This document shows, in pieces, positions 8,220 to 59,299 of a stretch of DNA of 64,000 nt. How positions within the stretch are numbered: the first letter of the stretch is position 1; every line of letters begins with the position of its first letter. The notes under the pieces were generated by a model. The model was not told the DNA's origin and made no database searches. It saw only the letters and a program-made list of their open reading frames with translations. Made by a program: the position numbers and the translations under genes. Location: the NCBI GenBank assembly GCA_017499595.2, contig CM039006.1, positions 2,604,001-2,668,000 on the forward strand, read 5' to 3'. This stretch comes from Psilocybe cubensis (taxonomy: Eukaryota).

Positions 8220-10090
8220 GTAAAGAAGGAAGGACGTGGTTCAATGATGAGTATTGTTATGGCTGTGAATTTGCTATACGGTGCTATTTTTGCAGTCTGT
8301 TCCAGCTGACACATTGAAGCCCCCTCACCGGACTGTCAGGATCAGGCGGAGATTCAAATAGTTGCAATTTAAAAAGTCGTGAATACTACTGGTACACCTT
8401 ACACTCTCTGTACACCTCAATCTTCACACACACATCTCAAACGGTTGAAAAACAGGAGATGCAGATGCCACATTGGTGGTTCGTGACGGTGTAGGTGGAG
8501 GGCATCTGGGCATCTGGAAGACCAGGAAACTGGTTTTGAAGGCTGTAATTTTGCATACGTGTACAGGCATTGGAAGCTGGGGCAGGGATGTGTGTTGATA
8601 TTTATGTTGATATCGCATGTATGTAGAAGGAATGGAAATTGGCATTTGATGCCGTGTTAACTGGATAAACGGCTAAAGATCATCAAACTAAGCACCCTTC
8701 CAAGCAACATTTTCATGATAATTTTGCATATTCGTATACCTATGTACAGTAAACACTTTAATCTACTTTAAAGCGTAAAAATTTTTTGGAAAAGAAACAG
8801 AGTCTTGAGTCGAGAAACGGGAATTTAAATCTCTACATCACTTTTGAATCCCTCGGATGATCACATCAGTAGAAACTAGCAGTGCACCCGTGCTTTGCAT
8901 GCAAATACGGGACAATTTATCATGTTATTTCCCCAGTGTTGCAATATTTTAAGGCCCTTCAGGCCCAATTAAAGTGTTTTTCAGCCTCTATTACAACGTT
9001 TTTAGTTTCGGAGCCTCCAAAATAAAATCCATCTACGTATCTACGTATTTTTAGACCAATAGGTAGACTACATTATTAAAACCAGTGGGGCACATCTGGG
9101 GTCTAGGGAGGATCATATGGGGGTCCATGTACACATTTGTGCACTTGTATGCGGGCCAGGATATGTGAATGACATGTACTACGAGTCCTGAACTTGAAGC
9201 TTCTGAGTCCCATACTCAAACCGCGCGGTATTACCAGCAAAAATGAACTCAATCGAAACATAGCCGATTAGCGCCGGCTAAAAAGGCGCAACGGGATGTT
9301 GCAGGTCCCCTCTGAGAGAGGATTCGTAAAATTTGAGAGGTGTTTGTGTAATTTTCCCTTGACGTTGCATTGAAATTCACGTTCAGTGCGCATCCTTGAG
9401 ACGCCCTTGATACTGTGCAACTTGAAGCTTGAAGCTTCAAAGAAAAGACTCTTCGGACTAAAACCGCCACACCATGCTGCCCCTCGGTTCATTCAGGCGC
9501 GGCACCGCTTTCTCTTCATATATAAACAGCAAAATCAAGCAGAACCGGGTTCTTCAAAGTTGAAGAGCCATATTCAGTGTTACCTTGAGGTCAAAGTTTC
9601 CATTCAAACTTACTCATCAGGGACCCAGAATGGGGTCTATCGTGCAGATCTTTGTTCCCCCAAGCCCTTCCGAGTCTCAGCAAAGTTCTTGCCAAGTGAT
9701 GTCATATGAGCAATATATGAGGGTCAATATCACCAAGTCTAGCTAACGTGTCAATGCCCTGCCTACTGCTAGACACACTTACCTTCTCGGCCGATAGATT
9801 GTATTTAGAACGCAAGAGTCGTCGTCGGTTGGCAGATATTCGGCAGAAAGGTGTGTCGAGGTGGGTTAACTTTTTTACAACTTTTTTCAAAAAAAGGCGG
9901 ACAGGGGTTTGTTTGTCGGATAATAGCGGCCGATCATCAAGCCATGCGATCGATGTGATTTCGGTTGCTTCCGACACATACAGACGCAAATTTTGGCTCT
10001 TCTTGAGAGGCAATGGCGATGTTGCGATTACTTGCAAGACCACTCACCCGTACTTCCATCTCACCACCGCTCCATCGTTTTTCGAGGACA

Positions 10091-12039
10091 ATGGCCACTG
10101 CAAATACCCCAGACTTCGTGCGTATCTGTGTCGACATCTATACACCCCCCTCTCTCAGTGATGCTGATGTGCTGTCCAACAATAGAACAAGGTCCTCTAC
10201 CAGCCTTTGGCGGAGATCGACCCCGAGGTCAAGAACATCATCGACAAGGAGACATGGAGACAGTTTACCGGTCTTGAGCTCATCGCTTCGGAGGTGCGTC
10301 TCTGGTTGTCTTCAATGCGTTTATCACCCTCCTAATCCTGGAATGCTGTAGAACTTGACCAGTCAGGCCACCATGGAGGCCAACGGTTCCATCTTGACCA
10401 ACAAGTACTCGGAGGGTCTCCCAAATGCCCGTTACTATGGTGGTAACGAGTACATCGATGAACTCGAGGTGCTTTGCCGCAAACGTGCTCTCCAGGCTTT
10501 CAACCTCGACCCCGCAAAGTGGGGCGTCAACGTTCAGCCTTACTCGGGTAGCGTACGTAGCTCACTCTCTATAGTGGACTCTTCTACTCACGAACAACAC
10601 CTATCTTGTGATTCATATTCTACAGACTGCCAAGTGGGTATTATTCCTGCGGAACGGATCTCCGTTCTTGAAGCTGACCATCGTTCCTTTTCAGCTTCGC
10701 TGCTCTCACCGCTCTAATTCAACCCAACGACCGCCTCATGGGTCTCGGCCTTCCAGATGGCGGACATCTCACCCACGGATACTATGTACGTGTCCTCCTA
10801 CCCTTCCTTGAGGCCTTTACGAAAGAAAATTAACGATATATCACGTGCATTACTTAGACCGCGAAGAAGAAGATGACCGCTTCGTCCATCTACTTCCAGT
10901 CTCTTCCTTACGCCATCACCCCCCAATCCAACCTTATTGACTATGCTGGACTCGCTGCCCAGGCAAAGATCTTCAAGCCCAGACTTATTATCTGCGGTGC
11001 CTCTGCTTACCCCCGTGACTGGGACTACGCTGAGCTGAAGAAGACGGCAACCAAGGAGGGTGCATGGCTCATGGCTGATATCGCCCACACCAGCGGTCTC
11101 ATTGCTGCTCAGGAGCTCAACAACCCCTTCGAATACTGCGATGTTGTCACTACCACTACGTGCGCTCTTTATTTCCATTTTGCGCATCGAGATATTAATA
11201 GTTCGCGATCAGCCACAAGACTCTTCGCGGTCCCCGTGCCGGTTTGATTTTCTTCAGGAAAGACCTCGAGAATGCTGCTGACCTCGAGAAGCGCGTCAAC
11301 GATGCTGTCTTCCCTGCTTGCCAGGGTGGACCCCACAACAACGTGCGCATAATTTTTTCTTGATTATTTCCTTGTATTGAACATGAGCCTCTCTTATTAA
11401 TAGACCATCGCTGCCATCGCCACCGCTCTCCTCCAAGTCTCGAAGCCCGAGTGGAAACTCTATGCCAAGCAGGTCATCTCCAACGCTCGCACACTCGCCG
11501 CTGCTCTCGTGTCCCACGGCTACAGACTCCAAACTGACGGTACCGACAACCACCTCGTCCTCTGGGATCTTCGCCCCATTGGTCTTACCGGCAGCAAAGT
11601 CGAGAAGGTCTGCGATCTCATGGGCATCACCATCAACAGTACGTCTTTATCGCTCTTTCTCACTTGTAATCAAAAAACAACCTCTTATATTTCCATTTTT
11701 TCAGAGAACGCTGTTTCCGGCGACGCGTCCGCCCAGGTCCCCGGTGGAATCCGTCTCGGCACATCCGCGCTCACCTCGCGCAACATGAAAGAGGAGGACA
11801 TCAAAGTCGTCGCCGAGTTCCTGCACCGCGCTGTGCAGCTCTCGCTCCTGCTCCAGAAGGAGGCCGGCTCGAAGCTGCTCAAGGACTTTGTCCGCGTCGC
11901 GACTGTGCCCCAGGAGGGCCTCGAGGGGTACAAGCAGGTGAAGCAACTCAGGGAGGAGGTCATCGCGTTCGCTAGCAAGTGGCCGCTTCCTGGTGTCGAC
12001 GTCACGACGCTCACTAAGCCCGAGGGCCTGCATGAGTAA
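10091..12039 (+). CDS. SHM2: Serine hydroxymethyltransferase, cytosolic type (multi-exon)
   Basis: Motifs [69 protein letters not shown] (PLP lysine), [24 protein letters not shown]. No mitochondrial leader seen. Confidence 0.96.
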
Positions 12040-13494
12040 AAAAAAACATGCAACAATCGGTGCCTTTATACCCGTTGTCCATTTAGCCCTCGACTTTCCG
12101 GTTCTCTTCTATCCCATCGGTCCTGGTCCAGGTCATGGTTCTGGTTTATTTTTGTTTCCCCCTCAAAAGAAGATTCAACGATCAACTCTTCACTGACTGA
12201 CTTGTAGATTCTATCATTGTCTTTACAATTAGAAGATGCAACACCCCGTTTATAGACGGACTTCAACATTGTCCGGCCCCCCCACCCATTGCTTATATCT
12301 TTCCTCTTTGTATTTCTAGTTGACGCATACCACGAATCTTACTTGACATCTATAAAAAAAAAGCATAATGTATATATTTCATGGCTATGACTCCGTTGTT
12401 ATTGAGTGTGCATGTGGTTCTGAAGGTGAGCGTAGGAATTTCGTATTTGTTTTTGGGCTGTTTTCGCTACTTTCAATGTTCCATGGCAAACCTGTGTGAA
12501 GGAGCTTTTCGAGTTGTTCGACGCGTGAAAGCCGCACAAATGCCAATGGCGCTATATATTGTAATTTATAAATTATAATAGGGCAGGAGCTTATGCATAA
12601 TATGAAGAGGGTCATGTCTCATGATGAGTTAAGAAATCGTACCGATGTGAATGGAATACTATCGCTTTCCCCTTCAATCAGTCGGTAGATTTGGGATACT
12701 GATTGCTGGTTGCTGAGCGCTGAGTACGAGTGTTCATGTTCTTCCTGTGCCGGAGGCACCCCTGACCTGGCCCATGTCATCAGGTGTTTTTCTGCGGAAA
12801 AGCGAGTGGCCCAAATGGAGAAGAACAACGTCCGCGTGCGGAGACACAACCGATGGAACTTTCAAGCCTTTTGTATCGGTGTAGGTTTGAGATAAAGTAA
12901 AACGCCGTATATGTGCCTGTCCGTCTTTCTTTTGGTTCTTCAAGTCATTAACGAGCTCTTTCCGATGAGCGTGGGAAAGAGATGGAAATTCCCGAACGTC
13001 CAGTCTGACTTGAGAAAGATTTTGTCGACTCAGTAGTTTTGGTGAGCTAGAAACTTCATCTCTTGCGCGCTATACGATCTACTTCTCACGTTCAAGCTGT
13101 ATATCATAGTTTCAGTGTTAGAACTTGACTGAAAGAAAGTAAGACCTTCATGCGGAAATCAAGTAGATCTGCCGTTTCCATGTTGCATTTTACCTGACCC
13201 ATGTGGAGGAGTATTCATTCTCCGGGGGGAAAATTGACAAAGAAAAAAGTCAGATAATGGGTGTCATTATGTCCAGAGCTGCTTATTTCTGCTGTGAGGT
13301 TGTCTCGTGTGGAAACTGACACGGGGTTATCCCTTTGTCCTATTGGCACCATTCGCACTTTGAAGTAATTACTAATAAACGGTCACCCTGGCCGTGTAAA
13401 AATAGCACACGCATGTTTCTAATCGCCGTAATATATGATAATATCAGGCCTTACAGTCATTTTTATTGATAATACCGTTGTATTGTAGTGCCAA

Positions 13495-14286
13495 TTGTCA
13501 TCAATAAACGACTGTTACTACTGTCCATTGACAAGCAGCCCATGTCTTTGGCGACTCTGCAGGTCTGCACACAGAAGCAGCGTCGATTGTCAATCAGCTC
13601 CTGATGGACAATTTATTAGCCCTACACAAGGAAGAAGCATTCGTTCAAATTGTCCATCACCTCCTGATGGACAATTTGATAATGACCTCCTTAGGGTACC
13701 TTGTTTGGAAAAAAGGGTGTGGCATTTCCTGGACTTGTCCATCATCGCACAAGTATACGTGGTTTGTATAGGACTTACTATATGCAGTATGATTTCTTGT
13801 TGTCAATCAATTTTCTTCATAACGCCAGGTATTGCCATTGTCAATCATCTTGTGGGTATTAAAATGTTTTTCCATGATTCATTATACGCAACGTTCTGCA
13901 CCTTTGTCGATCAATTCTTGGTGAGGCTCAGTTTGTTTCATTATTCAACGCGCAACATCAATTTGTCAATCACACCAGTGGCGTGTAATGGCCCGTCATC
14001 CCTTTCTTTCTCCTGGCCTATTGTCCATCATTGGTCATATCGGTGCCTAAATTTGTGCCTCGTTTGTCCATATAGGTTGTAGAACTATAGTAATCTTGTA
14101 CATCACCCTACAGCACATTTTTGGCGCATGCCCCCGTCCATTCAATTGTCGATCAGGCTCAGTGCTATATATACCTTTTACCTGTCAATTATTTAGCGCC
14201 ATGCAAAGCTGCAAGCGCTATTGTCAATCACAACGGATTTATGCCACGCGGCCAGCTTGAACGCTACTTGTATCATTTGTCAATCA
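13495..14286 (+). repeat. Left subterminal array of 10-bp motif TTGTC(C/A/G)ATCA
   Basis: Copies at 13587, 13650, 13735, 13800, 13838, 13904, 13963, 14021, 14146, 14221 and 14277, two inverted copies at 13602 and 13665, plus degenerate copies. Confidence 0.9.
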
Positions 14287-14374
14287 CACGCTATTTATAG
14301 AGAGCCCATCCTCGGATACATGACCTGATTTCTATAAAGGCCCACAGTTGAGGTTAAGGGATGCCTTCATCATC

Positions 14375-14728
14375 ATGAATCTTCGTTCAAGCACCAGTAT
14401 GTTTTTTATTTGTTTGCTCTCTCCAAGCGCATCCTAACAAATGCGGTATTGAATCTATAGGGAGGCTGAATGCTACACCAATTGGCCTTTTGATACCGCC
14501 TTTTCCAGATGATGGCGTCCTTTACTTAAGCCACAGGCAAATAGAGTATGTATTTGCTGAATCCTTCCTGACAGTTATCTATCTCTCATATGTACGACTA
14601 GACAAATTGCTTTGATATGTATTCAAGAACAAATCCGGACTGGTCAGCTTAAAATCCACGATAAATTAGATTTGAAAAGCCCAGATGTTGATGAGGGCCC
14701 CCGGCCAGAAGCTGCAAATAGAACGTAG
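14375..14728 (+). CDS. Putative 77-aa three-exon microprotein upstream of the transposase (not in ORF track)
   Basis: ATG at 14375. GTATGT..TAG introns at 14397-14460 and 14546-14601 keep the frame: MNLRSSTRRLNATPIGLLIPPFPDDGVLYLSHRQIEQIALICIQEQIRTGQLKIHDKLDLKSPDVDEGPRPEAANRT*. TATAAA at about 14333. Confidence 0.45.
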
Positions 14729-14923
14729 ATTTGATTAGTAATTGGCAATTGGCCACTACCATAATGGACCAATCAACGTTTTTGAACCCTTCTGAAATGT
14801 CCATCAGCGAGATAAAGCTTTCGTAACCAAGACAATCAACCTACCTTCATTCTATCTAAAGTTCATACCCACATATTTTGTTACTTTCCCTCCCCAGGAT
14901 CCATCCTTCAGAGTTTCGAAGCC

Positions 14924-17900
14924 ATGGGACGACAACGCAAGCAGAAGAATTTTCAAGTCGATGAATACGAATCGCCAGACGAGAAACTTGCCAAAGAGGC
15001 ATTGAAAGGAGACGTACATACAGACTATCTAGGGAAAAAACAGCAAACAGTTCGTCTTTCTCTGCCTGTTGGAGTTGATCCCAAACCTTTCCCTCCATTG
15101 ATGTCCAACGACTCCCCAACACCAACCCTTGATTGGGTGTTGCAAAATGAAACTCCATTTCGTGTGTTTGATGGTGATATTGAAATACAAGAAATGGAGG
15201 ATTGTGAGCTGGAGGCTTTGGGGATAATTAAATACTTTCGACGCACAGAAATCCCGTCCGAGCAATCAGACATAATTGAAAATCCTCAAAAAAAAAGGAA
15301 AACCCATTCGGTGAAGTGGATCTTACTTATTTACATCAGCTTTGTCTCTGATATTCCCCATGATGTGTTCTAACTTCTAGACACATCCGATTCATTTCTG
15401 GACCCCACACATTGACTCCTATGTTGACGAGCTGCTACGATTAGAAGCACCCGCTGGACCCATGGACCAATGCAGCAACACATCATGCACTGCTTTATTA
15501 GATTGTGCTTTATTTCGTTGTAGGGATTGCTGGGGCGGAGCTCTGCTATGTGCGGATTGTATAGTATCATTGCATAAGCAGAATCCGCTCCACAGAATAG
15601 AGGTTTTTCTATCTACAATTCCACAGTTATCTGGTCGCTTACCCATTATTTATCTCAGCATTGGACCGGTACATACTTCAGAAAAATATCTTCAAAATCA
15701 CTGGGTCTCCGCATCCAACTTGGCCATGCCGACGGTATTTGCGAGGTCCCCATCCCTGCGTTCAATGATAGCTTTGTCATAATATCAGTGAATGGGATCC
15801 ACGAAGTGGCTCTGGACTACTGTGGATGTACTATGGCACAATCTAGACCCACTCAACTGCTCCGTTCACGTCTATTCCCCTCTACAGTCAGCGACCCTAA
15901 AACTGCTGCGACCTTTGAAGTTCTCGAATACTTTCAGTTGCTTTCATTCAATACAAAGTCTTCTGGTTTTGAATTTTATCAAACTTTATCAAGGTTGACG
16001 GATAACACGGGAACAAAACCACCTCCAGTAAGAACTTCGTACTAACATTTATTTTCCAATGGCGCTAATGCTTAAGCTTTTGAGGATTGTTATCCTGTCT
16101 TTATGCGCATCGTAAGAGAATGGAGACATGTTAGGTTGCTTAAGCGCATGGGGCGCGGCCATGCAGAATCGGGCGTTGAAGGGACAAAAGAGGGAGAATG
16201 TGCTGTTTTGTGCCCCGCGTGCCCTCATCCGGGTATCAATATTCCGGAAAACTGGCAAGAGCGCCCAGAATCTGAGCAGTGAGAGTTTTATTGCTTTTGT
16301 CTATCACTGTCTTAAATTTACACTCTTATAGATGGATTTATTCACTATTTATTGGAATAGATGCAAATTTTCGACTCAAGAGAATGAATGTATCAAATGA
16401 CGATCGAGATCCCCCTTTAAACCATGGCTATGCTTACATGGTTGAAAGTAGGAAGTTCAGAGAATACTTGGACACTTACGACTCAAAAATTCCCGATGAG
16501 AAAAGTAATTGCAATAATCATGACGCTATCAAATCTGCAAGCATTCGAGGTGGAAAAGGAACAGCCGCCAGTGGGTTAGGCACTATTGAATGCAGTCGAC
16601 ACGATATGAAGCGTCCAGTATCCGTTGGAGACCTTCAAAAGGGCGAAAGGTATGTATTTGATAAACTGTAAAAGTTATCCATCAATCTCTTACCATCTTA
16701 TCAAATTGTCCATCATTCTTGCTCGTAATCACCAATTACGGAACATTGAGATATGTTAATATGGATTACTTTTTTCTGTCAAGCATCGCATTCATACTTC
16801 TCCATCGCTTGGTGGTATCTTATGACATTGCTTGCCAGTGGTGGTGTAATCTGATGAAACGGTGTTTAGTATATCCTCCAAACTCACTTTCAACTTTGAA
16901 TCTAGACATTGTGTACTTGGTACCAAAATTTCACCTTCCAGCGCATATCCCAAAGTGTCAAACCTCTTTCTCATTCAATTTCACTCCTGGAGTTGGGCGC
17001 ACTGATGGCGAGTCTCCTGAACGTGGTTGGTCATCAGCAAATGGAATTGCCAGTAGCACAAAGGAAATGGGGCCAGGATCTCGGAACGATACCCTGGATG
17101 ACCATTTCGGGGATTATAACTGGCGCAAAATCATTGGAATGGGTAGGAAACTTACTATTGCTTTTTGACATATCTCATGCTTCAATTTACAGCCAACACA
17201 TTTGTACGCAAGGCCAAAGAGGCCATTACCGCTCGGGAGGAGCACGTAGAGGCTTTCATTGAATTTGATGCTGCCTTACCGGTAGAAGTCACTACGGAGT
17301 GGACACGGCTATGTCAAGCATGGGAAAAGGATTCTAGCCAAATAAACCCATATGTCATTCCAAAAGGAAAGGGAAAAGGCGGTGAGTAATCGAAAAAGGG
17401 TACTAGAATTCCCTGATATTCAACTCCGATTGATAGCCACTGTAACTGAAAGGGATGTGCGACTAAAGCTTGCCGCTGAGGATGCAGCCTCCCTGGCTAG
17501 GGGAGACGCCATACAAGTGCACGATGATATTAGTCCAAGCCTTCTTATATATCAGGGACTCCAATTTGAGGAACTTCAGTATGTTCTGGTTACCTGTTAC
17601 AAACCTCAGCCACTTACTAATTTATCTACAAGGCACCGTATTACACATGATAGCTCCAAACTCGGACTTCACGCTACCAGTTTACAACAGTCAAGGATAT
17701 TGGAACGGTCCAACTCCCTCCGACGTCGCATAGATGCCTGGATATCCATCCAGCATTTATACATGCCTGTCGTAGCTTCGATCCGCTCGCGTGATGATGC
17801 GGGAGCTACAGAACCAGTTGCTGTGCAGGATATAAAGCTTTTCCTCCCCTCATTCAACACTGTTACTCTCCAATGTTCACACTTGTTGCTAAAATGCGAG

Positions 17901-18682
17901 TGGGAGTATCGAAATGCACAAGCCGAAGAAACTCTAACATCACTCCGGGCACTTCTGTTGCTGCGGTCGCATATGTACAAGTCAAAACACCAACATTCTC
18001 GTGGCCAACGCATGCAAACTCGAAGTCAAAAGCTACTATCAGATGTCCAAGATAAAATTAATTATTTGGTGAAGACATATAGGAGGATACATACAGCATT
18101 AGAAAACCTGTCTCCAAGTCTCATTGAAACCTCGTGGCGCACTGTGTATCGCCCTCTTCTTGACGAAGACGTGGCTGGTCTGACATCATTGGACGATTCT
18201 GGTAGCGAAGGCAGGAAGCAATTGTCATGGATTTGGAAAGTCCAAGGAACTGGCGCTGACGCCGATGCATGCACCCAAGCAGGTAAGCAGACCATCCGCA
18301 AGAGTACTATAACTTAATTTTGCCGTTTCTTATTTCAGCTTTACGTGTAGAGTGGTGTAAGTCGCGTGCGAGGGCTCATCGTTGGCAAGAGGAGTGCATT
18401 TTGCTTGCTGAAGAAATGCGCCGGGTTATAGGCTATTTTGAATGGAAGAAAAATCAGTGGAAAAATTGCGTGGCAGCAGTCCAAGCACAGTACAGTGCCG
18501 ATTCAGAGTCCGTAATACCAATGCAGCAGGAACTTTGCAACGGAAAAGTTGCTTACGCACATCGACAACAAGCAATTTGTGGAGATATCATGCTACGTTG
18601 CCAGAATGAATGGCAGGGTCTTTCACACTTGCTAACACATATGGAAGGGCGGAATGCATGGGTTATGGTAGAATGTCATTAA
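14924..18682 (+). CDS. CxC2 cysteine-cluster + KDZ transposase (multi-exon)
   Basis: FRCRDCWGGALLCADCIVSLHKQNPLHRIE|HWTG, LGLRIQLGH, NGIHEVALDYCGC, CPACPHPGINIP. Catalytic-type motifs GIDANFRLK, CSRHD, DLQKGER|YVNMDY, VSYDIACQW, PKFHLPAH, GRTDGESPERGWS. C-terminal RVEWCKSRARAHRWQEEC..EEMRR. Confidence 0.93.
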
Positions 18683-18836
18683 CGTGTGTAGTCTCTTTTC
18701 AATAATCAAAAATTCTACCATAATTAAGAGTTCAGTTTGCGGGGCTAAAAGCTTTTGATAAATTCTGTCCTTCTTGGTATGTACGATTTTCAAGGCCCAA
18801 GTCAATTTATTTTTCAAGTTAGAGACAGACGACAAG

Positions 18837-19842
18837 TCAAAATATACGTGATATAAAACATTCAAGAATTGACGTGTGGAAAAAACGGAGCAGTTTACAT
18901 TTCAAGACGATATGTTTGAAGATCTGACGGACCATCTTAGAGTGCAGCACTGTCTGTTTCATCAGAAGTGGGGCCAGAAGCAGTGGTATCCGGAATATAC
19001 ATGCTTCGGAGGGGGGATGGACCAAGTTCTCCAGAATGGTGCCTAAAGGCGGCGCACTTGATCGTTGGTTCCTGCGACCTCACAATCTTAGACCTGGGGG
19101 TAAGTAAAGACTAAATCTCAGAAAAGAACAGCTATACCATTCTTTGCTGACATCCTGCAGCAAATTCCGCCAAGAGCTGCGCATCTTTAAGAACGTCTTC
19201 ATCCTCCTGGAGCCGAAAGACCTTCTTGCGTTGGGCCTCAAGGTATCTTTGCGCTTGAATTTGGCGTTCGTTGACTTTCTCCTGATGTTTGGCCTCCTGT
19301 TTCTTACCATGGATTTCTTCTTCATGTCGACGAACTGTCTCGTCGCAAAACTCTTTCCAGTGTAAGGTGGCAGGATGACACCAAACTCCAGCAAAACACA
19401 ATTCAATAAATATTCTCTATTGAGCCTGTTAGAGAAATCATGGACGGATTTGAAAACACGAAGATACGCACCCGACGAGTGATTTGCCTTCGATGAGCAA
19501 CAGCTTCCAGATCATCCTTGTCTGTTGGTATCTCTGGCCATAGGGTGAACCACACAGAGTAGAAACGGTTGAGGAAAGCCTTCCTCTCCCCAATCCTCCA
19601 CGCTTGCATGTAGTAGGGGCCTGCCTCCTCAGTGAGCTTGAATTGTGCGGCTGCAACGGTGCGTGATATCATCTTGCGACGAGGTTGGATAGTGACAGGC
19701 TTTAAAAACACATTAGAAGCGTGTCATTCTTGTCGGTTGAAACTGAGATGCTTACCGGGTAGGGGTGTAACACCTTGGACTGCAGTGAGTTGTCCCTACT
19801 TGTAGTTTTATCCTTCTTGACGTTGCGTGTTTTGGGCATCAT
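18837..19842 (-). CDS. KDZ-element cargo gene A, hypothetical (3' end uncertain)
   Basis: Spliced exons MMPKTRNVKK...HPYP|PVTIQPRRK...KAFLNRFYSVWFTLWPEIP...|RIFIELCFAGVW...coiled-coil-like EEEIHGKKQEAKHQEK. GT-AG introns. Confidence 0.55.
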
Positions 19843-20355
19843 AAAGCAGTTGCGATGGAAGTGAAGAGTGAGGAACACACACTTGACGATTGCGTGGATT
19901 ACCCGCCTATAAACCCGTGTACAAGGTTCGTACTCCTCTTGAAGTCCATTTGATGGACAATTGCCAAAGGAATGACAGGAATTGCCTGTCATGCTTGAAG
20001 AATTGTCCATGGGCGCTTCAGTAATTGATGGACAATTGTTGAAGGTGATGGATAAGTCAAGCGCACATGTACCTCAATGACGTAGTATCGGTTATTGGTA
20101 CACCCGACCCGGTCTATGATTCGTGGGAAGGTTGGCTGAAACATACAATAACATAGAAATGGTGTAGATAATGATACAAGCTATGTATGGATTCTTTAAA
20201 GTCATATTTGGAATCAGAATAATAATCCCTTTCAAACAATACCTCTTTGAGGACAGTTTTCTACAGTTGCTAGTAAAAGTTAGAAGAATCCGTGGTTCAG
20301 TCACAACTTGACTACGTTTCACAAGGCAACGCACACTTTGTCCTGTACCACCACT

Positions 20356-21047
20356 ATGGGTAGACCCAAAAAATACAAAACCGACGAAGAACTAAAAGCT
20401 GCCAATCGTGCCAAAGCAAAACGGCATTATTATAAGTAAGTTTATTCAGCCAGGCAAGTAAACTACAGCGTACTAATTAATATTCAACTGTTTTCCTAAC
20501 AATACAGAGAGCGAGGCAAGATTTTGACGGAAAGACGTGGGACATACAAAGAATGCCACCCAGACCTGTACGTTGGATATTTTCATATAGTGCTATTGAC
20601 ATACTAAAGATATCTATCCTAAGCTCTGAAATTCCGGAAAAAAGAGGGAGTGTCGTAACCCATATAGAATTAGAGAAACCGGAACCCCTTGGAGTGTGGA
20701 TGGATCAATGTTGGAGACTCCAGCGACGATTTTGGCGCTTCATCGGAGAAGATCAGAAGTCATTTCTGGATACCATATGCCAGAAGTTCATAGACACCGA
20801 AGACGATACAGAAATCGAAGAGCATCTCGCCACATTACACAACTTTGAGACATCCATTCAGCGTTATAAGGGAAAGATTCTACAGATTTCAGGCGTAGAA
20901 AAGCCTCTCCTCCAGGTTCAAGAGATAGAAAGGCAGATTCATACATTGATAACTTACTTACAAGACATACTATGCCTTACTCTCTTCGACCACTCTAGCT
21001 TCCAAAAAGCCTTTACTTTTCGCCAGTTTGACTATCAAAAGGTGTAA
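20356..21047 (+). CDS. KDZ-element cargo gene B, small basic protein with N-terminal AT-hook-like GRPKK
   Basis: MGRPKKYKTDEELKAANRAKAKRHYYK|ERGKILTERRG..|SEIPEKRG...WMDQCWRLQRRFWRF...FDYQKV*, with two introns. Confidence 0.7.
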
Positions 21048-21222
21048 ATAGGACTCTTATATCATATCACACATTTTCACTTTGGATGCAAACATGATAT
21101 TTTTTAAGCACGGTATATACACATAAATGGAGGCAGTCCCAGCACAACAAGCAAACAGATAGGTACGACACGATAATAGCAGGTGGGACAGCAAGGTGAT
21201 AACAAACGGGAGCAAAAGATGA

Positions 21223-22797
21223 CTAGACCCCTTTGACTTCAACGTTTCCCGCATCAAGAGCCTCTTGGAAGGCGGCATAAGCAGCTGCCTCATTACTGTA
21301 CCTCCTGTAGACGGATCCCCTGACTCCAGTGACAAGGGGGGAGACATTGTGCCTATAACTGTTTCAGAACAAAAAAGAGAAAAATCTCATTGAAATTACG
21401 TACCAGCCAGTAAACACACCAACTCGCTTTCCCTTAGTCACAACATAGTAAGGCTCCGGAGTATGGAAATGAATCTGCATTTGGCAATTAGGACAAAATC
21501 CTGTGTGAGCGGCTGCAACGGGGGCGGCTGCAACAGGAGCAGTTGCGACGGGGGCGGCTGCGATGTGGTTGGCTGTGACGGGGGCTGCGGCTGCGACGTG
21601 AGCAGTTGCAATAGGAGCAACTGCGATGGGGGCTGCGACGTGGGCGGCTGCAACAGGAGCAGTTGCAACGGGGGCGGCTGCGACGTGGGTGGCTGCAACA
21701 GGAGCAGTTGCAACGGGGGCGGCTGCGATGTGGTTGGCTGCGACGGGGGCTGCGGCTGCAACGTGAGCAGTTGCAATAGGAGCAACTGCGATGGGGGCTG
21801 CGACGTGGGCGGCTGCAACAGGAGCAGCTGCGACGGGGGCGGCTGCGATGTGGTTGGCTGTGACGTGGGCTGCGGCTGCGACGTGAGCGGTTGCAACAGG
21901 AGCAACAGGAGCAACTGCAATGGGGGCTGCGACGTGGATGGCTGCAACAGGCGCAGCTGCAACGGGGGCAAATGCAACAGGAGAGGCTGCAACAACGGCC
22001 TCTGCAACGTGGTTGGCAGCTACGCCAGATAACGCCATATCATCAGGTATATCAGAAACGTAGGAAATGTTGTCTTCATCGTCGCTGTCCTCAACAAAGA
22101 TACAAGCATTATCACTGGTGAGAGGATCTTCCTCACCATGTGATGCATGGGTTGCAGCTTGGGCGGGAATCAATACCAGAAAGCGTATATTAAGGTGCAT
22201 GTTACGGGACTTACCTGTTGGAACACCAACCTGCTCCATGAATAGTGCATCAATTACCGCATTACGCTCGGCGGCACGGTTGTCAGAGAGACCTAGAAGA
22301 TAAATCAGTCAGAGGGAAGCAGCTCCAGTCGGTGCTTGAACTGACGGATAGCTTCGGTTGGTCCTGCATCTGATCGAGTATATATCAGTTAGAAACGGAA
22401 GTGTATTGGTTAATATTAATACATACAATTATCTGGGACGGTGTGAATATCTATAATGGGGAAGAGAAAACTTATTCAATGGAATAGGCGCGCCCCCATG
22501 AAGAAGACTTACCAATGGATGTTGCGTTGTTGGGACAAACATTTGAATTGAACCCAATGATGCCAAAACGACGAAGGCAGAAGACAATGGCCACAATGAG
22601 ATTGCCCATTGGGATGTCTTCCACACCGTTGTGACTGACTATCGTATCAGTTAGTAACGCTGAATCAGTGGTTTGACAGGATGATTACCGGGAAGCTCCA
22701 ATGCTTCAAGAGCGGCACTAATAGTGTCTACATTCAATTCCATTGCATCTGTATTGTCGGCGTTGTTCTGGATGCTTGTGAGCAAGGGAGGTGTCAT
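21223..22797 (-). CDS. KDZ-element cargo gene C: Ala-rich repeat protein with C-terminal RNase H1 N-terminal (hybrid-binding / caulimovirus viroplasmin-like) domain
   Basis: Multi-exon, starting MTPPLLTSIQNN. An Ala/Pro/Val/His repeat is followed by CPNC and PYYVVTKGKRVGVFTGW|HNVSPLVTGVRGSVYRRYSNEAAAYAAFQEA, which matches the YxVxxGxxxGVYxxWxxxxxxVxG...xxFxxxxxAxxF pattern. Confidence 0.78.
21505..22025 (-). repeat. Coding minisatellite (~15-bp units with higher-order repeats) encoding APVAA/AHVAA/NHIAA
   Basis: Repeated ggctgcaacaggagc / ggctgcgacgtg / gcagttgc units. The block AAAHVAAPIAVAPIATAHVAAAAPV.ANHIAAAPVA recurs. Confidence 0.9.
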
Positions 22798-23152
22798 TTT
22801 TGGAGCTCAGTGAGTGGGATATTTGGAAGGTTGAGTTGGGGGATATATGGGAAGATTGCCCTTATTTGAATCGATGGACAACTATACAGTAGCTCGGTAA
22901 ACGGCGGAGAAGCCGAATTGGTAAGCCAAGCCACAGATCGGATGTAGATTATGGAAGCTACGAGCGGCAGTGCTGGGGAAAGGGCCGCTGAAGGAGGGAG
23001 CACCCATTCAGCCCAGAGGAGTACTCGATATACATTGTAGGCGCCTCAAAAAATATATTTGGTATATGTTGCTGATATATTCTTAGATCACTTATTCTTG
23101 GAACATATCACCGGCACTTTTAATATCTGTGACATTGTTTTTCCGTGCCAAG

Positions 23153-26100
23153 ATGCCGCCAACGCCGTGGGCCACGCCCGACCAAATCGAGTTCATGTCT
23201 ACTTGGTTACCACAGTTCCAGGATGCTCAGCGTAATAAAAATATAGCCGATTTCTGGGTGAAGTTATATGCCAAATTCTTCTTAAGGTGGAAAGGGCCTG
23301 AAGATGAAGTTCAACCCGATTTGGTTCAGCTAAAGAAACGTAAAAAAGACAACAGAAAGTTACCTCAAACATCGACGCCTATTGAGTTAGATCATGCTGC
23401 ATGGATTAAGCTACGGAAGACGGTGAGATCCATAGCTTTTTTTTCTGATTTGATTCAATCAATGTCTAACGAATACCCTTTTTGTCCAATTCCATGTCTA
23501 ACGAATTCCATTTTTGACCGATTCCATGTCTGACGAATTCCATTTTTGACGAATTCCATGTCTAACCAATTCCATGTCTAACCGATTCTAGCAAATCGCT
23601 AACTGGTTTAATAACCGGGGCAAAGGAAGCGAGAACCGACGCCAAGGCCCCGCCATAGTGATTGGATCTGCAGGGCCCAGTCAACGCGCCCTCTCTGAAC
23701 TGAATGTCTACTCGAAGCGGTACTACAATGAAAAAATATGTTCTCTCGTGGAAAAAGAACTCGAAAAACAAGGCGGCCCCGCCCACATTGCTCTTATCAA
23801 TAAATGTATCAGTGAGGCATGGGCCATGGAGTCCGAAGATGTCAAAGAGGAGATTCGCGCAGAGACAAAGAGGTTGAAAGAGTTACTGAAGGAAGATCGC
23901 TCTGGGAATAGCGAGCAACCGACTCCTCAGGAATACGCCAAGTACGTTTGTTTTGGCTGCGTTGATTCAATTATTATTGATGAATTACTAACCAATTACA
24001 TGATTTAGAGCGATTATGGAAGCTCCTGGTCAAATTACAAACTTTCTTCAAGAAATGTACAAACGCACTGGCTGGTGCTTGAGTCTCCTAGCTGGCGGCC
24101 CTGATCCCTCGCGTCAAGGAAAGATTCGTACAATCAGCATCCATATGGGAAAGGACAAATTCGACCAGTTTTACTCGTGTGCCTATCCAGACTTTCAGGA
24201 AAATGTTTTGGGTTCGTACCGCAGCTACTTATACAATGTATATTGTGAGTATGGTTTCTATTAAATGAATATACAGAGACTCACAAAGTGTTATATATAT
24301 AGCTCAGAAGGATAGAGATAATCGCGCCCTCTCTGAAACGGAGCCTATAGCGAGTATGAAAACAGATAAAGGTGGGATCATGGACGACTGCGAAGACAAT
24401 TCCGGTCCTACCGTTCAAATCGAGGTTGAAAAACCAACACTGGTAGGAAATGAAGACGGCCCCAATTTGATGGATCCTGACGGCCGGAATGATATACCAG
24501 CTGCGGCGACCGAGGATACACCAGCTGTAGCGACCGAGGATACACCAGCTGCAGCGACCGAGGATACACCAGCTGCAGCGACCGAGGCAACCGTTACCTC
24601 CACAATCAGGACCACGGAGCCATGTAATGGTGTTACGCAGACTCCTGCAACTCCTGCAATAGAAATACTGGGTCATGGCCTTGCTATTGATGGAAACAAT
24701 ACCAACGCTCAACAATGTTCCGACAGTGGCCCAGATGATAGCCGCCCAGTGTCTTTGGTAGATCCCCCAAATGGAAAAGCGATGGACGGAGACAAATTGT
24801 ATGCAGAAGAAGACAAGGTGCTTTCGTTCATGGAATTGTTGAACGTGGATGGGGGTTACGACCCAGAAAGAGACCCATTGCTTCAAATTTCTATGAACAA
24901 TGTGTTTTTTTCAAACCATCAGTTTGTGGGCAGTACACAGGAGAACAGAGCATTTCAAGTACCTATAACAGCAACGCCAATGGCCTGGGTTCCGCGTCCC
25001 AAAGATAACACTTCCTTTAATGTACAAGCACCTGTAAATTTGTTTCCACCCATCCCAACGTCGACAAACAATCCAAATGGTCACAGTCTGCCTTTTTATC
25101 ACCAAGAGGGCCTCATTACTCCTGTGTATGCTCCGACGGCTGGATCTTACCTTTCAGCCCAGCCGGCAGTGATGACAGAGCAACCGATTGCTCCAGGTCT
25201 TTTCCCAACACTGCAGTCGGCATTCACACCTCCCTGCGCACCGTATTTTGTTCAACCAGAAATGATGCCAACAATATCCAATCAAAATTGGGCTCATTCA
25301 AACACTTTGTCGGCAGTAACACCACCTGTGCCTGAGCAACTGGGGTCCTCGACACTGATGGACCATTGTGAACCCCAAAATCTGCCATCGTTGAGATTTT
25401 CTGATGCCCTGTCGACGGGCATGCCAAATACTGGGTATACCAACCCTGATATATTCCCCCAGTTTGTCCAAGCGACTCCTAGTCTGTATGGGTCTGGCCA
25501 CCACAACGTCACAATACCCCAGATAGTTCAAGCACATGTAGGTGTCAGTGCCTCTGGCGTTGCACAGGAATCGAGAACGTCATCACCCACTAGCCAGCTA
25601 GATCTCAGGGCCTCAATGCACTCCCCGCAATCACGCCCATCTGCTTCTGAGAAACAAGAAAGAATTCCGGTAACAGGGGGGCATCCAACACCTCGGGACA
25701 CAGTATCCGACAATACCAACTGTACAACAGCAACAGGGACAATGATAGTCCCCACCCCAGCCCTTGAATCTGTTGCTCATGCTTCGCAAACCCCTGTCTT
25801 GAACGAAATGAATGCTGAAATGCAGCACGTCGTCGGGGATGGTGGCCGTCGAGCTCGCAAGGCCGCAAGTTCAAGGAATGTCCCTATGCAGCAAATGTGG
25901 AGAACAGCAGCATTTGAGCACCTTATGATGCCTGAGATAGATACGGAGAAATGGAAATCATGTGTAAAGGCATGGGTTGCATTTGAGGATTCGCAATGCA
26001 ATGCCATCGAAACCAGTTCGGTAAGTAATTTTAGAACAGTAACAGAATATCAACGCTTACAATAATACCAGCTCCGATTCCCAGCTGCGATGAGGCCAGC

Positions 26101-26497
26101 GGTCCTGACCAAATGGTTATCGACTCGTAAGTACGGGAATGTCCCTGATATTGGAGCCAAATTTGGGGATGAGTGGGTAATGTGGTGGAATAACAGTCAG
26201 CCTAAATGGAGGCAGAGCTCGGAGGCTGGTAAGCTTCCACGATGTCTGTCTATTGCAGGAGGGAAAGACAGCATCAACATGTTGAAGAAAGGAGGTCCAA
26301 ATGGATTGGTAACGGTGATGATTGGGTTGAGGTGGTGGGCAAAACAGCGACACTCCGACCCTAGATGGGAAGAAGCCGTTGAAGACATCCTTGCTGTATT
26401 CCAAGCATTCCAAGGAGGCGGTAAAGTGACTAAAAAGCGTAAGGGGGACGAGGAAAACATCGAGGCAAAGCCGAAAGTGAAAAGGAGGAAGACATGA
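23153..26497 (+). CDS. KDZ-element cargo gene D: large protein with HMG-box-like segment, long low-complexity middle, Trp-rich C-terminal domain and terminal NLS
   Basis: MPPTPWATPDQIEFMSTWLPQF..FWVKLYAKFFLRW; ELNVYSKRYY...INKCISEAWAMESEDVKEEIRAE (HMG-like); TGWCLSLLAGGPDP; WVMWWNNSQPKWR...KGGPNGLVTVMIGLRWW; KPKVKRRKT*. Confidence 0.8.
23461..23589 (+). repeat. Tandem ~15/30-bp repeat in intron 1 of cargo gene D
   Basis: Alternating ATTCCATGTCTAACGA and ATTCCATTTTTGACCG-like units directly before the 3' splice site. Confidence 0.85.
24496..24588 (+). repeat. 24-bp coding tandem repeat x4 (PAAATEDT)
   Basis: ccagctgc(g/a)gcgaccgaggataca units. Confidence 0.9.
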
Positions 26498-26632
26498 TTA
26501 TGATGTTGCTCTTTCTCTTTGTCAGTTCCCACGCGACCCATCTAATGTTTTTTTGCGCGGTTCTTTTGAACAAAAGCTAAGTTTAATATACTCTCTTGGA
26601 ATAAAATGCAATTTAAAACTGATACCCATGGG

Positions 26633-27354
26633 AGATGGACAATCCGGTTGTGATCAATAAAGTTCAGTGGGTGAATATCTGTTCAGGTCCTGGCAAATGA
26701 GCGGTTTGATTGACAAAGAATGGAGTGGATCGATGAAAGGAATTGGTAATCTGCTGAATTTATGCGGCAAATGGACAAATGAAGAGGGAGTGCCGCTAGG
26801 TATTGGAGAGCGCCATAAGGTGTCCCTCTAGGTCTTTTGTTGATGGATAAATCTCCTTGCAAAAGGGTGAGCGGGATAGATGGACAATTGGCGCACATTT
26901 TGAAATATCTGACGAACTGACCAGTACGCCCTCCCAATGATGGACAAAGGGTATGGCAGATGATATTACCAACGTTCAGCAGACATTGACAAAGTGGATG
27001 CGGATGAATGAAAATAGATCGACAACCGCACTATGTATGGATGAGCCACCATAGGCCATAAATGATGGACAACGTCATGATATTGCACATGGGGCATTTA
27101 TACATGAATGCACTGTAGAGGATTGGTAAATATAGCGGACATGATGGACGAGTTAACAGGTAGATGGATCATGTAACTATGGACAACGTACTGGAAATGG
27201 ATAATCCAAGAGGTATGGTCCGATGGACAAAAAGGATATTTATTGATTGAGAAGTACCACCTATAGACAGAGCGGCTACCATCGACAAAAGCTATGAGTA
27301 TCAAAAATGTGGCTGGAGCAGGCATGGTATAGTATGGTCGGTGGACATCGACAA
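26633..27354 (-). repeat. Right subterminal array of motif (T)GAT(G/T/C)GACAA, the inverse of the left array
   Basis: Copies at about 26633, 26707, 26769, 26841, 26878, 26938, 27015, 27063, 27142, 27177, 27221, 27279 and 27345. Confidence 0.88.
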
Positions 27355-28174
27355 TCTCATTGCGTATAAACAATTCCAAAGGCATTGGTAGGTATGCGAA
27401 TTATGAATGAAGATTGTTACTGTACTGCAATGGTTTATACATTATCACGGTTGTATCTGGTGATAATATACATACGATTGCATTCTACAAGGCAATGTAA
27501 GCGATTGAACTAATAAACTGAGTTTTACTAACTTGTTTCTTCTTGAAGTAACGAAGCTTTCAGATAACAACTGTAGATGATCTGGGTATTTTCATGGGTG
27601 TCGTGGCTCGCTGGGTTACTTTAGGCATTCAAACTTCAAACCGCTTTACCGTGATTTATCGATATAAATAGGTTTCACTGACTTGGAAAAACCAGATGAA
27701 TACCAACTATCCATGTCAAGATACCTAGAACACCAAACCATGAACATCTGAACCATGGATAGTATACTTGGGATTTCAGTCGAGATTTGTAATTATTGGA
27801 AAAGAAAACCTCCTTTCAATGGCAGTAGGGGAGCATTTACACTTACAGCTGGTATTATTCGCATTTGAGACTCAATGGATTGTGAGTACCTGCATCTCTA
27901 AATCGACGCGAGTTCAGAGATATAATATGGAGTGGTCATAAGGAGGCCCAATCCTCTGAAACTAGATAACCAGTTCACCGGATACTTAGTTATTTTTGGA
28001 TTTTTCTCTAGATGGTGTAATTATATCCTTCTCCCTCCTGGTTACGAGCTTATACATACATTGTGAGCTCCTAGAAATCGTATAAAACCTATAGAAAAGA
28101 GGATGAGTGATACTAAGATCCTTCAAGTGGTTCTACTCAGCTCAGTACTCCTAGTCCTCTGCAAACATTAGCGC

Positions 28175-28757
28175 ATGATGTTTTCAAAGTTCAACCTGAT
28201 CAAGGCCATTGCCATGACCATTGCTTTGGCTGTCGGCACTCAGGCTGCCCCCAGCAATGCTTCGCCTGCTTTGGTCAGTAGTATCTCTACAGTCTCTGAC
28301 ACTCTGTGCTTTATAGAACAATTTTAACACATTTCTATACAGGTCGCACGCGACACAGAGGCAGCGTCGGTAGACGGGCACCTTTTCGTCTGCGTCAATG
28401 CCCAATTTGTCCCGCCATGCAACAACTTCAATTTCAATGACGGACAATGCATCAACTTTGTTGCGCCTTTCCAGGACAGCATCTCGAGCTTGGGACCTGA
28501 CCCGGGGTTCACCTGCATTGTCTTCAAGTCAGTGTTGATCCAATTATTCGCCATTTAATTATTGACCATGTTTCAAGGGACTCCAACTGCTCTGGAGAGA
28601 GCCTCGACGTCTCCAACCCCGGTATTTCCGACCTTTCTCAGGGCACCGACCTCAACGACCAAATCTCCTCTTTCCAATGCTTCGCAAACTGGTTAGTTGC
28701 TCATTTCTGTTATTTGTGCCATTTTAATTGGATAATAACTTTGGGTTGACATACAGA
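28175..28757 (+). CDS. Small secreted Cys-containing protein, beta/gamma-crystallin-like, copy 1
   Basis: MMFSKFNLIKAIAMTIALAVGTQAAPSNASPAL|VARDTEAASVDGHLFVCVNAQFVPPCNNFNFNDGQCINFVAPFQDSISSLGPDPGFTCIVFK|DSNCSGESLDVSNPGISDLSQGTDLNDQISSFQCFAN*. It has a signal peptide and two (N/Q)DxISS crystallin-type motifs. Confidence 0.75.
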
Positions 28758-58540: not shown

Positions 58541-59299
58541 TCAATACATTCTTGCCATAGCTGTAACGACCTTTTCTCTGACGCCATTCTCCCAATCGTC
58601 CCAACATAAACCCAATACGACGCTGTCAACACCAGGACACCCTGCTCTTGGATCGCCCCCTCTTAATTGCCTCCCATTTCCAGCACTAACGGCCACTTTT
58701 CCAGGAGGAAATACGCGGTTCCACCTCAAGACCGTTTCGAATACGAACCCCATTTGCTCCGCCGTACGCACGCTTGCCTTGTTCAGCCAATTCGCGCGCC
58801 AGGATACGCGCCGCAGGCCGAGTCCGCTCGACGCTGGTAGGTCCAGTGCATAGTGCAGCAGCAGCCCGACGGCGTGCGTGGTGACGTGCGTGCGCTGGAA
58901 CGGCGGGAAGACGATCGCGCACCCGATCTCGGTCTGTAGATCTGTGACGGATGTATGTGTGAGACCGATGATGCCCGCCACAGGCAGTGCGGCCTTGGTT
59001 TTGTCAAAGATGACAAAGGTGACTGATCCAGAGTCGGCGCGGATGTTCGCGAGGTAGCCGTTTGTGAACGCGTCCAAGTCTGCAAAGGGTTCCATGGGTA
59101 GCAGGTCGAATACCCGAGGATATGCTTGCATTTGTTTGAACACAGGAAGAGCATGCTCCGAAGGCTACAATGGTTGCGATATGTTACTGTAGAATGTATA
59201 ATGCTAGAAAGGACGTACAACGAGAGGTACGAGTTTAACCTTGTCGCTCTCTAGAAATGGAGGCAGAGGGAAGCAAAAGTTGCTATCCTGTGTGGACAT
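58541..59299 (-). CDS. GNAT acetyltransferase, RimJ/RimL-type
   Basis: MSTQDSNFCFPLP...|...TEIGCAIVFPPFQRTHVTTHAVGLLLHYALD...LGLRRVSWRANWLNKASVRTAEQMGFVFETVLRW. Confidence 0.9.

Follow-up and report, generated by a model that had tools for sequence, protein, structure and literature searches.

Why should a DNA transposon carry a gene for a protein that has the duplex-binding domain of RNase H1 and no nuclease? The question is raised by a gene on the minus strand of a 64,000-nucleotide stretch of Psilocybe cubensis DNA (contig CM039006.1, positions 2,604,001 to 2,668,000), which is referred to throughout as the window and numbered from its first letter. A preliminary description, made from the sequence alone, had read this gene as transposon cargo encoding an RNase H1 N-terminal-like domain, here called the hybrid-binding domain (HBD), and had supposed that the product counters RNA silencing or helps to select targets. 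KDZ elements are abundant in mushroom genomes, but, apart from their transposase and the TET/JBP gene that some of them carry, to our knowledge little is known of them. We find that the gene lies in a precisely bounded 14-kb Kyakuja-type KDZ element, which has moved between strains of one species, and that it is a conserved accessory gene of this transposon lineage. In the best overall explanation, to which we give an even chance of being right, its HBD-only protein acts as a non-catalytic reader or shield of nucleic-acid duplexes.

A hybrid-binding domain with no nuclease attached

The gene is intact. Its six introns were derived by eye, and the seven exons, joined by coordinates, translate letter for letter into a database protein of 414 residues (P0002, 'hypothetical protein JR316_0010229 [Psilocybe cubensis]'), which was retrieved together with the paralogue P0003 by a region search; the read-through C-terminus compared with proteins of near length gave no match. 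The introns measure 50, 62, 57, 53, 57 and 51 nt, and all six have GT..AG ends. The last of them splits the domain: the minus-strand frame ...CPNCQMQIHFHTPEPYYVVTKGKRVGVFTGW, ending ...GVFTGW, runs into the donor GTACGT at 21403, and the acceptor TTATAG ends at 21353 and is followed by an exon reading HNVSPLVTGVRGSVYRRYSNEAAAYAAFQEALDAGNVEVKGV and then a stop. The preliminary description had seen this intron and placed it at 21353-21402; its true span is one nucleotide longer, in frame and with an internal TGA, and the spliced C-terminus is as was described, except that the protein runs 7 residues beyond the '...DAG' at which it had been left. Retention of intron 5 yields exactly a second database protein of 433 residues (P0111, in UniRef 'Ribonuclease H1 N-terminal domain-containing protein'); the two gene models differ at intron 5, and both splice intron 6. 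The gene and its domain label are already in public databases, and the domain annotation is not new.

Intron 6 can be followed in relatives of the gene. Metagenome contigs scanned with an alignment of nine sequences gave eight loci (L001 to L008), and in five of the six examined the intron has the same place, phase and GT..AG ends, with exon/intron junctions TG/GT...AG/G in L003, L005 and L007, CT/GT...AG/T in L001 and CC/GT...AG/C in L006; L008 is ambiguous. By this comparison the intron is old. A rough pattern count over 108 database homologues puts 28 as read-through, 31 as spliced and 49 as unclassified, the unspliced proteins showing the Trp, then YV or FV plus an insertion.

The spliced protein matches the Pfam family PF01693 (RNase H1 N-terminal / Cauli_VI) with 39.9 bits (E 4.9e-10, cut-off 21), over residues 356-398 and positions 1-43 of the 44 in the profile. 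Left unspliced, the two exons match complementary halves of the profile (positions 1-17 with 17.2 bits and 20-43 with 14.2 bits), and 29.9 bits are reached by the read-through when X stands for the stop. The match is beyond chance, and as an observation it is statistically solid. PF01693 is the sole Pfam family above threshold in P0002, in which no RNase H catalytic domain was found; the protein ends 16 residues past the match, without the C-terminal catalytic domain that makes an RNase H1 enzyme. An AlphaFold2 model built on an alignment of 31 sequences has a mean predicted local distance difference test score (pLDDT) of 56, with most of the protein predicted to be disordered, and reaches pLDDT 83-98 over residues 340-410. 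There, beta strands at 357-362, 367-370 and 386-390 and helices at 372-379 and 393-405 give the order beta-beta-alpha-beta-alpha and superpose on solved HBDs. When the model was compared with the Protein Data Bank (PDB) by Foldseek, ranks 1-5 were chains of 3BSU (human HBD with a 12-mer RNA/DNA) and rank 6 was 1QHK; the 3BSU matches have probability 1.00, a template-modelling score on the target of 0.79-0.84 and a root-mean-square deviation of 0.9-1.6 A over 43-47 columns. Profile and structure comparison of the C-terminus, which the preliminary description had proposed as its check, both bear out the stand-alone domain. Among viral models (BFVD) the best matches include several caulimovirid transactivator/viroplasmin proteins at probability 1.00, and the fold is indeed common to caulimovirus proteins, as had been stated.

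The residues by which the human domain holds its ligand have counterparts in P0002. In the phmmer alignment to 3BSU, Trp372 falls on the chain's Trp and Arg388/Arg389, 16 residues on, fall on its sole Lys-Lys, a spacing identical to that of human W43 and K59/K60; Tyr358, Trp372, Tyr387 and Arg388/Arg389 align with the Tyr, Trp43, Phe and Lys59/Lys60 of the human domain. The mutations W43A and KK59/60AA of the human HBD are described, in a passage of PMC10639055, as compromising RNA:DNA binding. Trp372 is kept in 31/31 spliced relatives and Tyr358 in 30/31, and a basic residue stands at position 389 in 29/31 and at both 388 and 389 in 19/31.

P0002 and RNase H1 (human 3BSU, yeast 1QHK) thus have in common PF01693, its fold and the aligned Trp43 and Lys59/Lys60 positions. 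In RNase H1, however, the HBD is N-terminal, ahead of a C-terminal nuclease, whereas in P0002 it is C-terminal with no nuclease; P0002 differs further in the CxxC motif and long Ala-rich linker before the HBD, in a G-x-V-x-V tail, and in being encoded by a transposon. Caulimovirus P6 (transactivator/viroplasmin), a suppressor of RNA silencing, has the same small domain, likewise without a nuclease, but has nothing in common with P0002 outside it, and the fungal gene has introns and named homologues that all come from Agaricomycetes. If it binds as its sequence and modelled fold suggest, an HBD without a nuclease would be a natural, genetically encoded binder of RNA:DNA hybrids or double-stranded RNA (dsRNA).

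Outside the domain the protein is strongly segmented. Residues 1-120 are acidic (pI 4.2), with predicted helices at 23-32, 47-60 and 100-112, the first of which is a family-wide motif (~ITLtqLIdALxxLGI) that reads ELNVDTISAALEALELP in P0002; residues 121-176 form an acidic patch of net charge -14. The N-terminal half gave no usable match in an Atlas search. The Ala-rich linker of the preliminary description is real, a 162-residue stretch (177-338) of 49% Ala, 17% Val and 13% Pro that has pLDDT below 50 and is coded by the tandem repeat at 21509-21969. The cysteines of the CxxC motif that follows are kept in 21/31 and 19/31 aligned family members. The HBD itself (residues 356-414) is basic, pI 9.5, and the family alignment shows the G-x-V-x-V tail to be conserved after it.

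An exhaustive HMMER search with the read-through C-terminus returned 108 cluster representatives with E no higher than 1e-3, and for 6 of these E was 1e-10 or lower. Their median length is 181 aa, and in 82/108 the best matched stretch ends no more than 10 residues from the C-terminus. P0002 and 106 of these homologues were scanned against Pfam (n=107); PF01693 was matched in 72, and no RNase H catalytic family in any of the 107. Two giants, P0015 (1985 aa) and P0048 (3037 aa), which were excluded from the scan and from the alignments, have 13 and 7 matched stretches and are tandem arrays of HBD-like units. Of 30 members whose species were looked up, 28 were named, and all 28 come from Agaricomycetes (mushroom-forming fungi): Psilocybe, Pholiota, Hypholoma, Gymnopilus, Candolleomyces, Tulosesus, Coprinellus, Mycena, Armillaria, Hypsizygus, Amanita, Boletus, Grifola, Fomitopsis, Laetiporus and Rhodofomes, which we take to represent the Agaricales, Boletales and Polyporales. 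Several genomes have multiple copies, at least 5 in Mycena floridula and at least 4 each in Tulosesus angulatus and Pholiota molesta, and identical family proteins of Boletus edulis stand under two accessions. When 31 correctly spliced members are aligned, they show a common order of N-terminal motif, variable low-complexity linker, CxxC (in about two thirds), domain and tail, the domain being conserved while the linker varies freely. The paralogue P0003 of P. cubensis conforms to this pattern: it has 354 aa, a PF01693 match of 33.8 bits and a shorter repeat, and its identity to P0002 is 73% overall and 88% in the domain. A domain tree of 57 columns and 34 rows, in which 20/31 inner branches are unresolved, places the window pair apart from L001/L006 and from L005, and transposon-linked copies do not all fall together in it. 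The definition of this family appears to be new.

A mobile Kyakuja-type element and its conserved genes

That the gene is cargo of a KDZ transposon, as had been supposed, is established by the borders of the element (13445-27462), which were set by comparing contigs of two DNA-like sequencing runs of the same species label (X1 and X2) over 12500-28500. One contig in each run joins 13435 directly to 27461, which is the empty site. X2 also has a copy of the element at another site, in three contigs at single-copy depth (13445-21551, 21836-24558 and 24558-27369), the first of which has 21 differences from the window in 8107 nt (>99.7% identical), and its end contigs enter other flanks (...CAGTGAGGAA before 13445 and TGAGGAACC... 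after 27462). The window copy lies between two direct copies of ATAATAT and the X2 insertion is flanked by a different 7-bp duplication, TGAGGAA. With an empty site and a copy at another site, the 14-kb element has moved recently.

The termini of the element read CAGG... and ...GGTG, and a search for inverted repeats of at least 20 nt found none between the two ends. Duplications of 7 bp, 5'-CA..TG-3' ends and the absence of terminal inverted repeats are features of Kyakuja (Kojima 2025, PMC12730594, section 3.2.1), whereas Zisupton and the Cryptococcus KDZ elements are described, in the passages concerned, as having mostly 8-bp duplications together with terminal inverted repeats. The Kyakuja-type assignment is one made on terminal features only, not on the transposase clade. 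Inside both ends lie subterminal repeats of one motif family, in opposite orientations; the 12-mer motif has 13 matches against 0.44 expected, a count reached in 0/100 shuffles, and all 14 exact 9-mer cores in the window fall inside the element, in clusters at 13.6-14.8, 19.95-20.03 and 26.6-27.2 kb, of which the outer two face each other. The internal cluster (19951-20037) is mid-element and oriented like the right end, and it may be left over from an older and shorter element or may serve as a binding site inside the present one. It had suggested a right end at ~20.06 kb, which would leave the HBD gene outside, and this border is ruled out by the empty-site joint and the copy contigs. The transposase gene encodes CxC2 (PF18803, E 4.4e-41) and KDZ (PF18758, E 1.6e-19 and 2.3e-39) domains, and the whole element sits in intergenic DNA about 1.4 kb past a serine hydroxymethyltransferase (SHMT) gene.

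X1 also has contigs that are more diverged and cover the transposase as well as the 5' part of the HBD gene. In one of these, of 1035 nt and about 85% identical at its 5' end, the Ala repeat is missing together with part of the middle exons; this copy may represent the P0003 paralogue. Linker evolution between copies is fast.

Whether the HBD gene belongs to the element or merely happens to lie in it can be judged from the metagenomic loci, whose neighbours were sought by tblastn with all 68 element open reading frames (ORFs) of at least 70 aa, the transposase ORFs being then confirmed by Pfam. In both L001 and L006, CxC2/KDZ ORFs lie 3.3-3.6 kb downstream of the HBD gene, and upstream, on the other strand, are homologues of gene B, the large gene that stands divergent from the HBD gene in the window. 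A transposase is found in 2/3 loci with at least 3.8 kb downstream, and the check on co-occurrence with KDZ elements that the preliminary description had proposed is therefore positive where the flanks allow; gene B is found in 4/5 loci with at least 2.4 kb upstream (L001, L002, L005 and L006). The CxC2 domain of the window is 57% identical to that of L001 and 56% to that of L006, and the two loci are 81% identical to each other; for the last HBD exon the corresponding values are 49%, 51% and 80%. Judged by these identities, transposase and HBD diverge in parallel. Because independent loci repeat the linkage to a CxC2-KDZ transposase and a divergent gene B, the HBD gene is an accessory gene conserved in this transposon lineage and neither a chance passenger nor a one-off capture, and transposase, HBD-only protein and gene B form the conserved three-gene core of the element.

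The transposon context of the HBD gene appears to be new. The terms 'RNase H', 'Cauli' and 'hybrid' have 0 occurrences in the main text of Kojima 2025 (PMC12730594), and 'RNase' and 'Psilocybe' have 0 in its supplement, which gives sequences to 400 characters per cell and therefore says nothing either way on whether the published Kyakuja consensus sequences encode an HBD protein. In the literature searched we found no link between an HBD protein and KDZ elements apart from capE of Pleurotus ostreatus, although the supplements of Iyer et al. 2014 may bear on it. For P. ostreatus, the relevant part of Castanera et al. 2014 (PMC4289320) describes a long copy of the helitron helpo1.3 with a 10.7-kb block between inverted repeats that holds capD (low-complexity), capE (pfam01693) and capF (an RNase-H-fold nuclease and putative transposase), which the authors there read as helitron captures plus endogenised viral sequence. 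As so described, capD corresponds in gene type to gene B, capE to the HBD gene and capF to the transposase of the present element. By analogy, and on a comparison with the published description only, the Pleurotus block may be the same kind of module, and in the light of our finding the 'captured viral' interpretation of the capE block may deserve revision.

What the protein may do for the element

We propose that the HBD would bind A-form-containing duplexes (RNA:DNA hybrids and possibly dsRNA) through Tyr358, Trp372, Tyr387 and Arg388/Arg389 and, because the protein cannot cleave, that its role would be that of a reader or shield. It might coat element-derived hybrids or dsRNA and so keep host RNase H1 or the RNA interference (RNAi) machinery off them, while the N-terminal helices could dock a partner. 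Such a shielding or anti-silencing helper is, by analogy, the likeliest sub-mechanism, and we advance it tentatively, as a proposal more apt to be wrong than right. It is ranked first because sister Kyakuja elements carry TET/JBP genes thought to be anti-silencing, which are absent here: Tet_JBP was not matched in any element ORF scanned (Pfam; 22 ORFs window-wide and 19 in a further scan). The purpose would be analogous to that of the TET/JBP genes, which Kojima 2025 (PMC12730594), where it treats them, proposes to help transposons escape silencing. Like the HBD gene, the TET/JBP gene of Agaricomycete Kyakuja elements is an accessory gene beside the transposase, within the same element ends; the TET/JBP protein, a dioxygenase also encoded by Zisupton and other fungal DNA transposons, is however an oxidase, whereas the HBD protein is a predicted nucleic-acid binder. 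Another parallel is the Myb/SANT protein of PIF/Harbinger-Nuwa elements, described in part of the same paper as a second, DNA-binding ORF, and thus likewise a non-catalytic nucleic-acid binder encoded beside a transposase; its fold is a different one, and the presumed ligand of the HBD protein is an RNA-containing duplex, not the DNA ends of the element. A conserved gene of this kind next to the transposase suggests that the present transposon lineage brings its own nucleic-acid-binding helper.

Several observations weigh against this proposal. The Foldseek E-values are just 3e-3 to 1e-2, which is because a match of ~45 residues sits inside a query of 414, and phmmer against PDB sequences finds only 1qhk (the N-terminal domain of yeast RNase H1, E 0.012) and 3bsu (E 0.53), both weak. 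In a sub-branch comprising L001, L006, L008 and P0011, Leu or Pro replaces the Trp and VRH or PRH replaces the basic pair, and this is the very sub-branch in which linkage to the transposase was seen. Loss of these residues calls for caution in assuming canonical activity across the family, and the conserved role may do without canonical hybrid binding. One HBD alone may bind weakly: in an experiment reported in PMC10639055, as excerpted, a single HBD-GFP stained cells diffusely while three in tandem marked R-loops, and binding may therefore call for avidity, gained from a partner or by self-association. As to linkage, L005 has no transposase match in the 3.8 kb downstream and L007, whose downstream flank is too short for a transposase, has no gene B in the 2.4 kb upstream; L001, L002 and L004 are near-identical and come from sister samples, which leaves only three independent long loci, and the transposase of the window is inverted relative to the HBD gene as compared with L001 and L006. 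Finally, the splicing of the gene is deduced from gene models and conservation.

Other accounts of the gene are available, and we consider it unlikely, though worth keeping in view, that HBD-only proteins are a host family picked up by KDZ elements, serving the host or nothing and having no role in the life cycle of the element. DNA transposons of such size often carry passengers, as may be true of two further sets of ORFs in this element (19080-19723, minus strand, and 20356-21047, plus strand), to which nothing in L001 or L006 corresponds; in L005 the HBD gene and gene B stand with no transposase within 3.8 kb, and the role of the protein for the element is arrived at by inference. Against this, the linkage to the transposase and gene B persists although the HBD exons are just 49-51% identical, with parallel divergence, and the domain has been conserved while the linker was free to change; moreover, canonical RNase H1 is not among the 108 nearest relatives, and the gene is therefore no recent capture of the first exon of the host enzyme. 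It is slightly less probable still, in our judgement, that the protein guides integration, with the HBD reading hybrids at transcribed DNA and the N-terminal helices bringing the transposase so that insertions fall near R-loops. A docking motif, a flexible linker and a reader domain with conserved contact residues would suit such a tether; the recruitment of the transposase is, however, purely conjectural, the Trp-less sub-branch is transposon-linked all the same, and of the only two insertion sites known (ATAATAT and TGAGGAA) the one in the window is intergenic, 1.4 kb past the SHMT gene, and uninformative either way.

That the gene is an endogenised fragment of a caulimovirus, as was read for the helitron-captured capE ('endogenized plant viral sequence'), is very improbable. 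The Pfam family is named after caulimovirus ORF VI, the BFVD matches to caulimovirid transactivator/viroplasmin proteins reach probability 1.00, and the interpretation by Castanera 2014 (PMC4289320), in the section on capE, points the same way. Only the domain of ~45 residues is common to the two, however, and it matches cellular RNase H1 (3BSU, 1QHK) at least equally well; the gene has six fungal-type introns, its 28 named homologues of 30 looked up are all from Agaricomycetes, and Pfam scans of the element ORFs found no other P6 region or viral gene. Just as hard to credit is an annotation artefact or a decaying pseudogene in transposon debris. The DNA is repeat-rich and the gene, largely low-complexity, is known here from DNA and gene models, but its 7 exons, bounded by canonical splice sites, form one intact frame, distant homologues keep the intron at the same position, the domain is C-terminal in at least 82 of the 108 homologous clusters, and a near-identical copy exists in another strain.

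Returning to the reader or shield proposal, we speculate on a wider version of it, which we regard as doubtful rather than probable: that the Kyakuja lineage across mushroom-forming fungi encodes a standing non-catalytic hybrid/dsRNA reader, paired with gene B, which would hide the transcripts or R-loops of the element from host RNase H1 and RNAi or steer integration to R-loops. Should the HBD protein serve the element, R-loop or dsRNA biology would be tied to the control of a DNA transposon, and the anti-methylation cargo of sister elements would have in the protein a counterpart open to testing; the element would then be the first known case of a DNA transposon with an R-loop- or dsRNA-binding helper, in place of the TET/JBP of its sisters. 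Should it be a mere passenger, the result would be an ordinary one, namely a hypothetical protein, labelled in public databases already, with a domain of a known kind.

Coordinates and further features

Coordinates of the features discussed are collected in Table 1.

Table 1. Features of the element in the window and of the metagenomic loci; positions in the loci are those of each contig
Feature	Position	Strand	Remarks
Kyakuja-type KDZ DNA transposon	13445..27462	+	14,018 bp; 5'-CA..TG-3' ends; no long terminal inverted repeat
Left target-site duplication	13438..13444		ATAATAT
Right target-site duplication	27463..27469		ATAATAT
Left subterminal repeats	13490..14806		TTGTCCATC / TGATGGACAATT motif
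Right subterminal repeats	26634..27340		same motif family, opposite orientation
Multi-exon transposase gene	14816..18682	+	CxC2 at 15578-16045, KDZ at 16276-17168
HBD-only accessory gene, ATG to stop	21223..22797	-	7 exons
HBD gene exons	22797-22689, 22638-22513, 22450-22427, 22369-22346, 22292-22215, 22157-21404, 21352-21223	-	
Intron 5 of HBD gene	22158..22214	-	57 nt, in frame, no stop; spliced in P0002, retained in P0111
Intron 6 of HBD gene	21353..21403	-	51 nt, GTACGT..TTATAG; phase 2 in the Trp372 codon; splits the HBD
Tandem repeat coding the Ala/Val/Pro linker	21509..21969	-	Tandem Repeats Finder periods 15, 63, 120, 165 nt
CxxC motif, Cys342 and Cys345	21484..21495	-	~12 residues ahead of the domain
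HBD coding region, residues 356-414	21226..21453	-	PF01693, AlphaFold2, Foldseek; interrupted by intron 6
Gene B, large multi-exon gene	23153..26497	+	divergent from the HBD gene, ATGs 355 bp apart
X1 diverged copy, aligned segments	21553-22039 and 22125-22497		
L001 (13.3 kb), HBD	5251-5691		
L001, gene-B N-terminal exons	4163-3900	opposite to HBD	
L001, transposase	within 9.5-12.7 kb		CxC2 (E 2e-44) and KDZ (E 2.8e-41) ORFs
L006 (9.9 kb), HBD	4454-4988		
L006, gene-B N-terminal exons	3305-2112	opposite to HBD	
L006, transposase	8877-9494		CxC2 (E 1.9e-44), cut by contig end
L005 (9.1 kb), HBD	5110-5312		
L005, gene-B N-terminal exons	3309-2301	opposite to HBD	
L002, HBD			present; contig ends 0.7 kb downstream
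L002, gene-B N-terminal exons		opposite to HBD	present
Trp-less HBD variants	L001 5494-5600; L006 4796-4895; L008 245-345		rest of domain kept

For gene B a Pfam scan with E up to 1 gave just a sub-threshold HMG_box match in one exon (E 0.01, 16.7 bits, cut-off 25.4), and this was dropped because the homologous ORFs in L001, L005 and L006 do not show it. It has no usable Atlas match and no homologue among the longer proteins searched; a 'QIANWFNNR' stretch in it presumably recalls helix 3 of homeodomains. The two ORF sets at 19080-19723 and 20356-21047, one of which starts MGRPKKYKTDEELKAANRAKAKRHYYK, match no Pfam family and may be lineage-specific passengers.

Elsewhere in the window, the SHMT gene is a multi-exon host gene at 10352-12039 (plus strand). 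An unbroken ORF of 1483 aa at 3116-7567 (minus strand) encodes a Copia-type polyprotein with gag, beta-barrel, integrase core, SH3-like and RVT_2 domains and is probably a young long terminal repeat retrotransposon, and an ORF at 58541-59164 (minus strand) has a GNAT acetyltransferase domain (Acetyltransf_3, E 8.9e-11).

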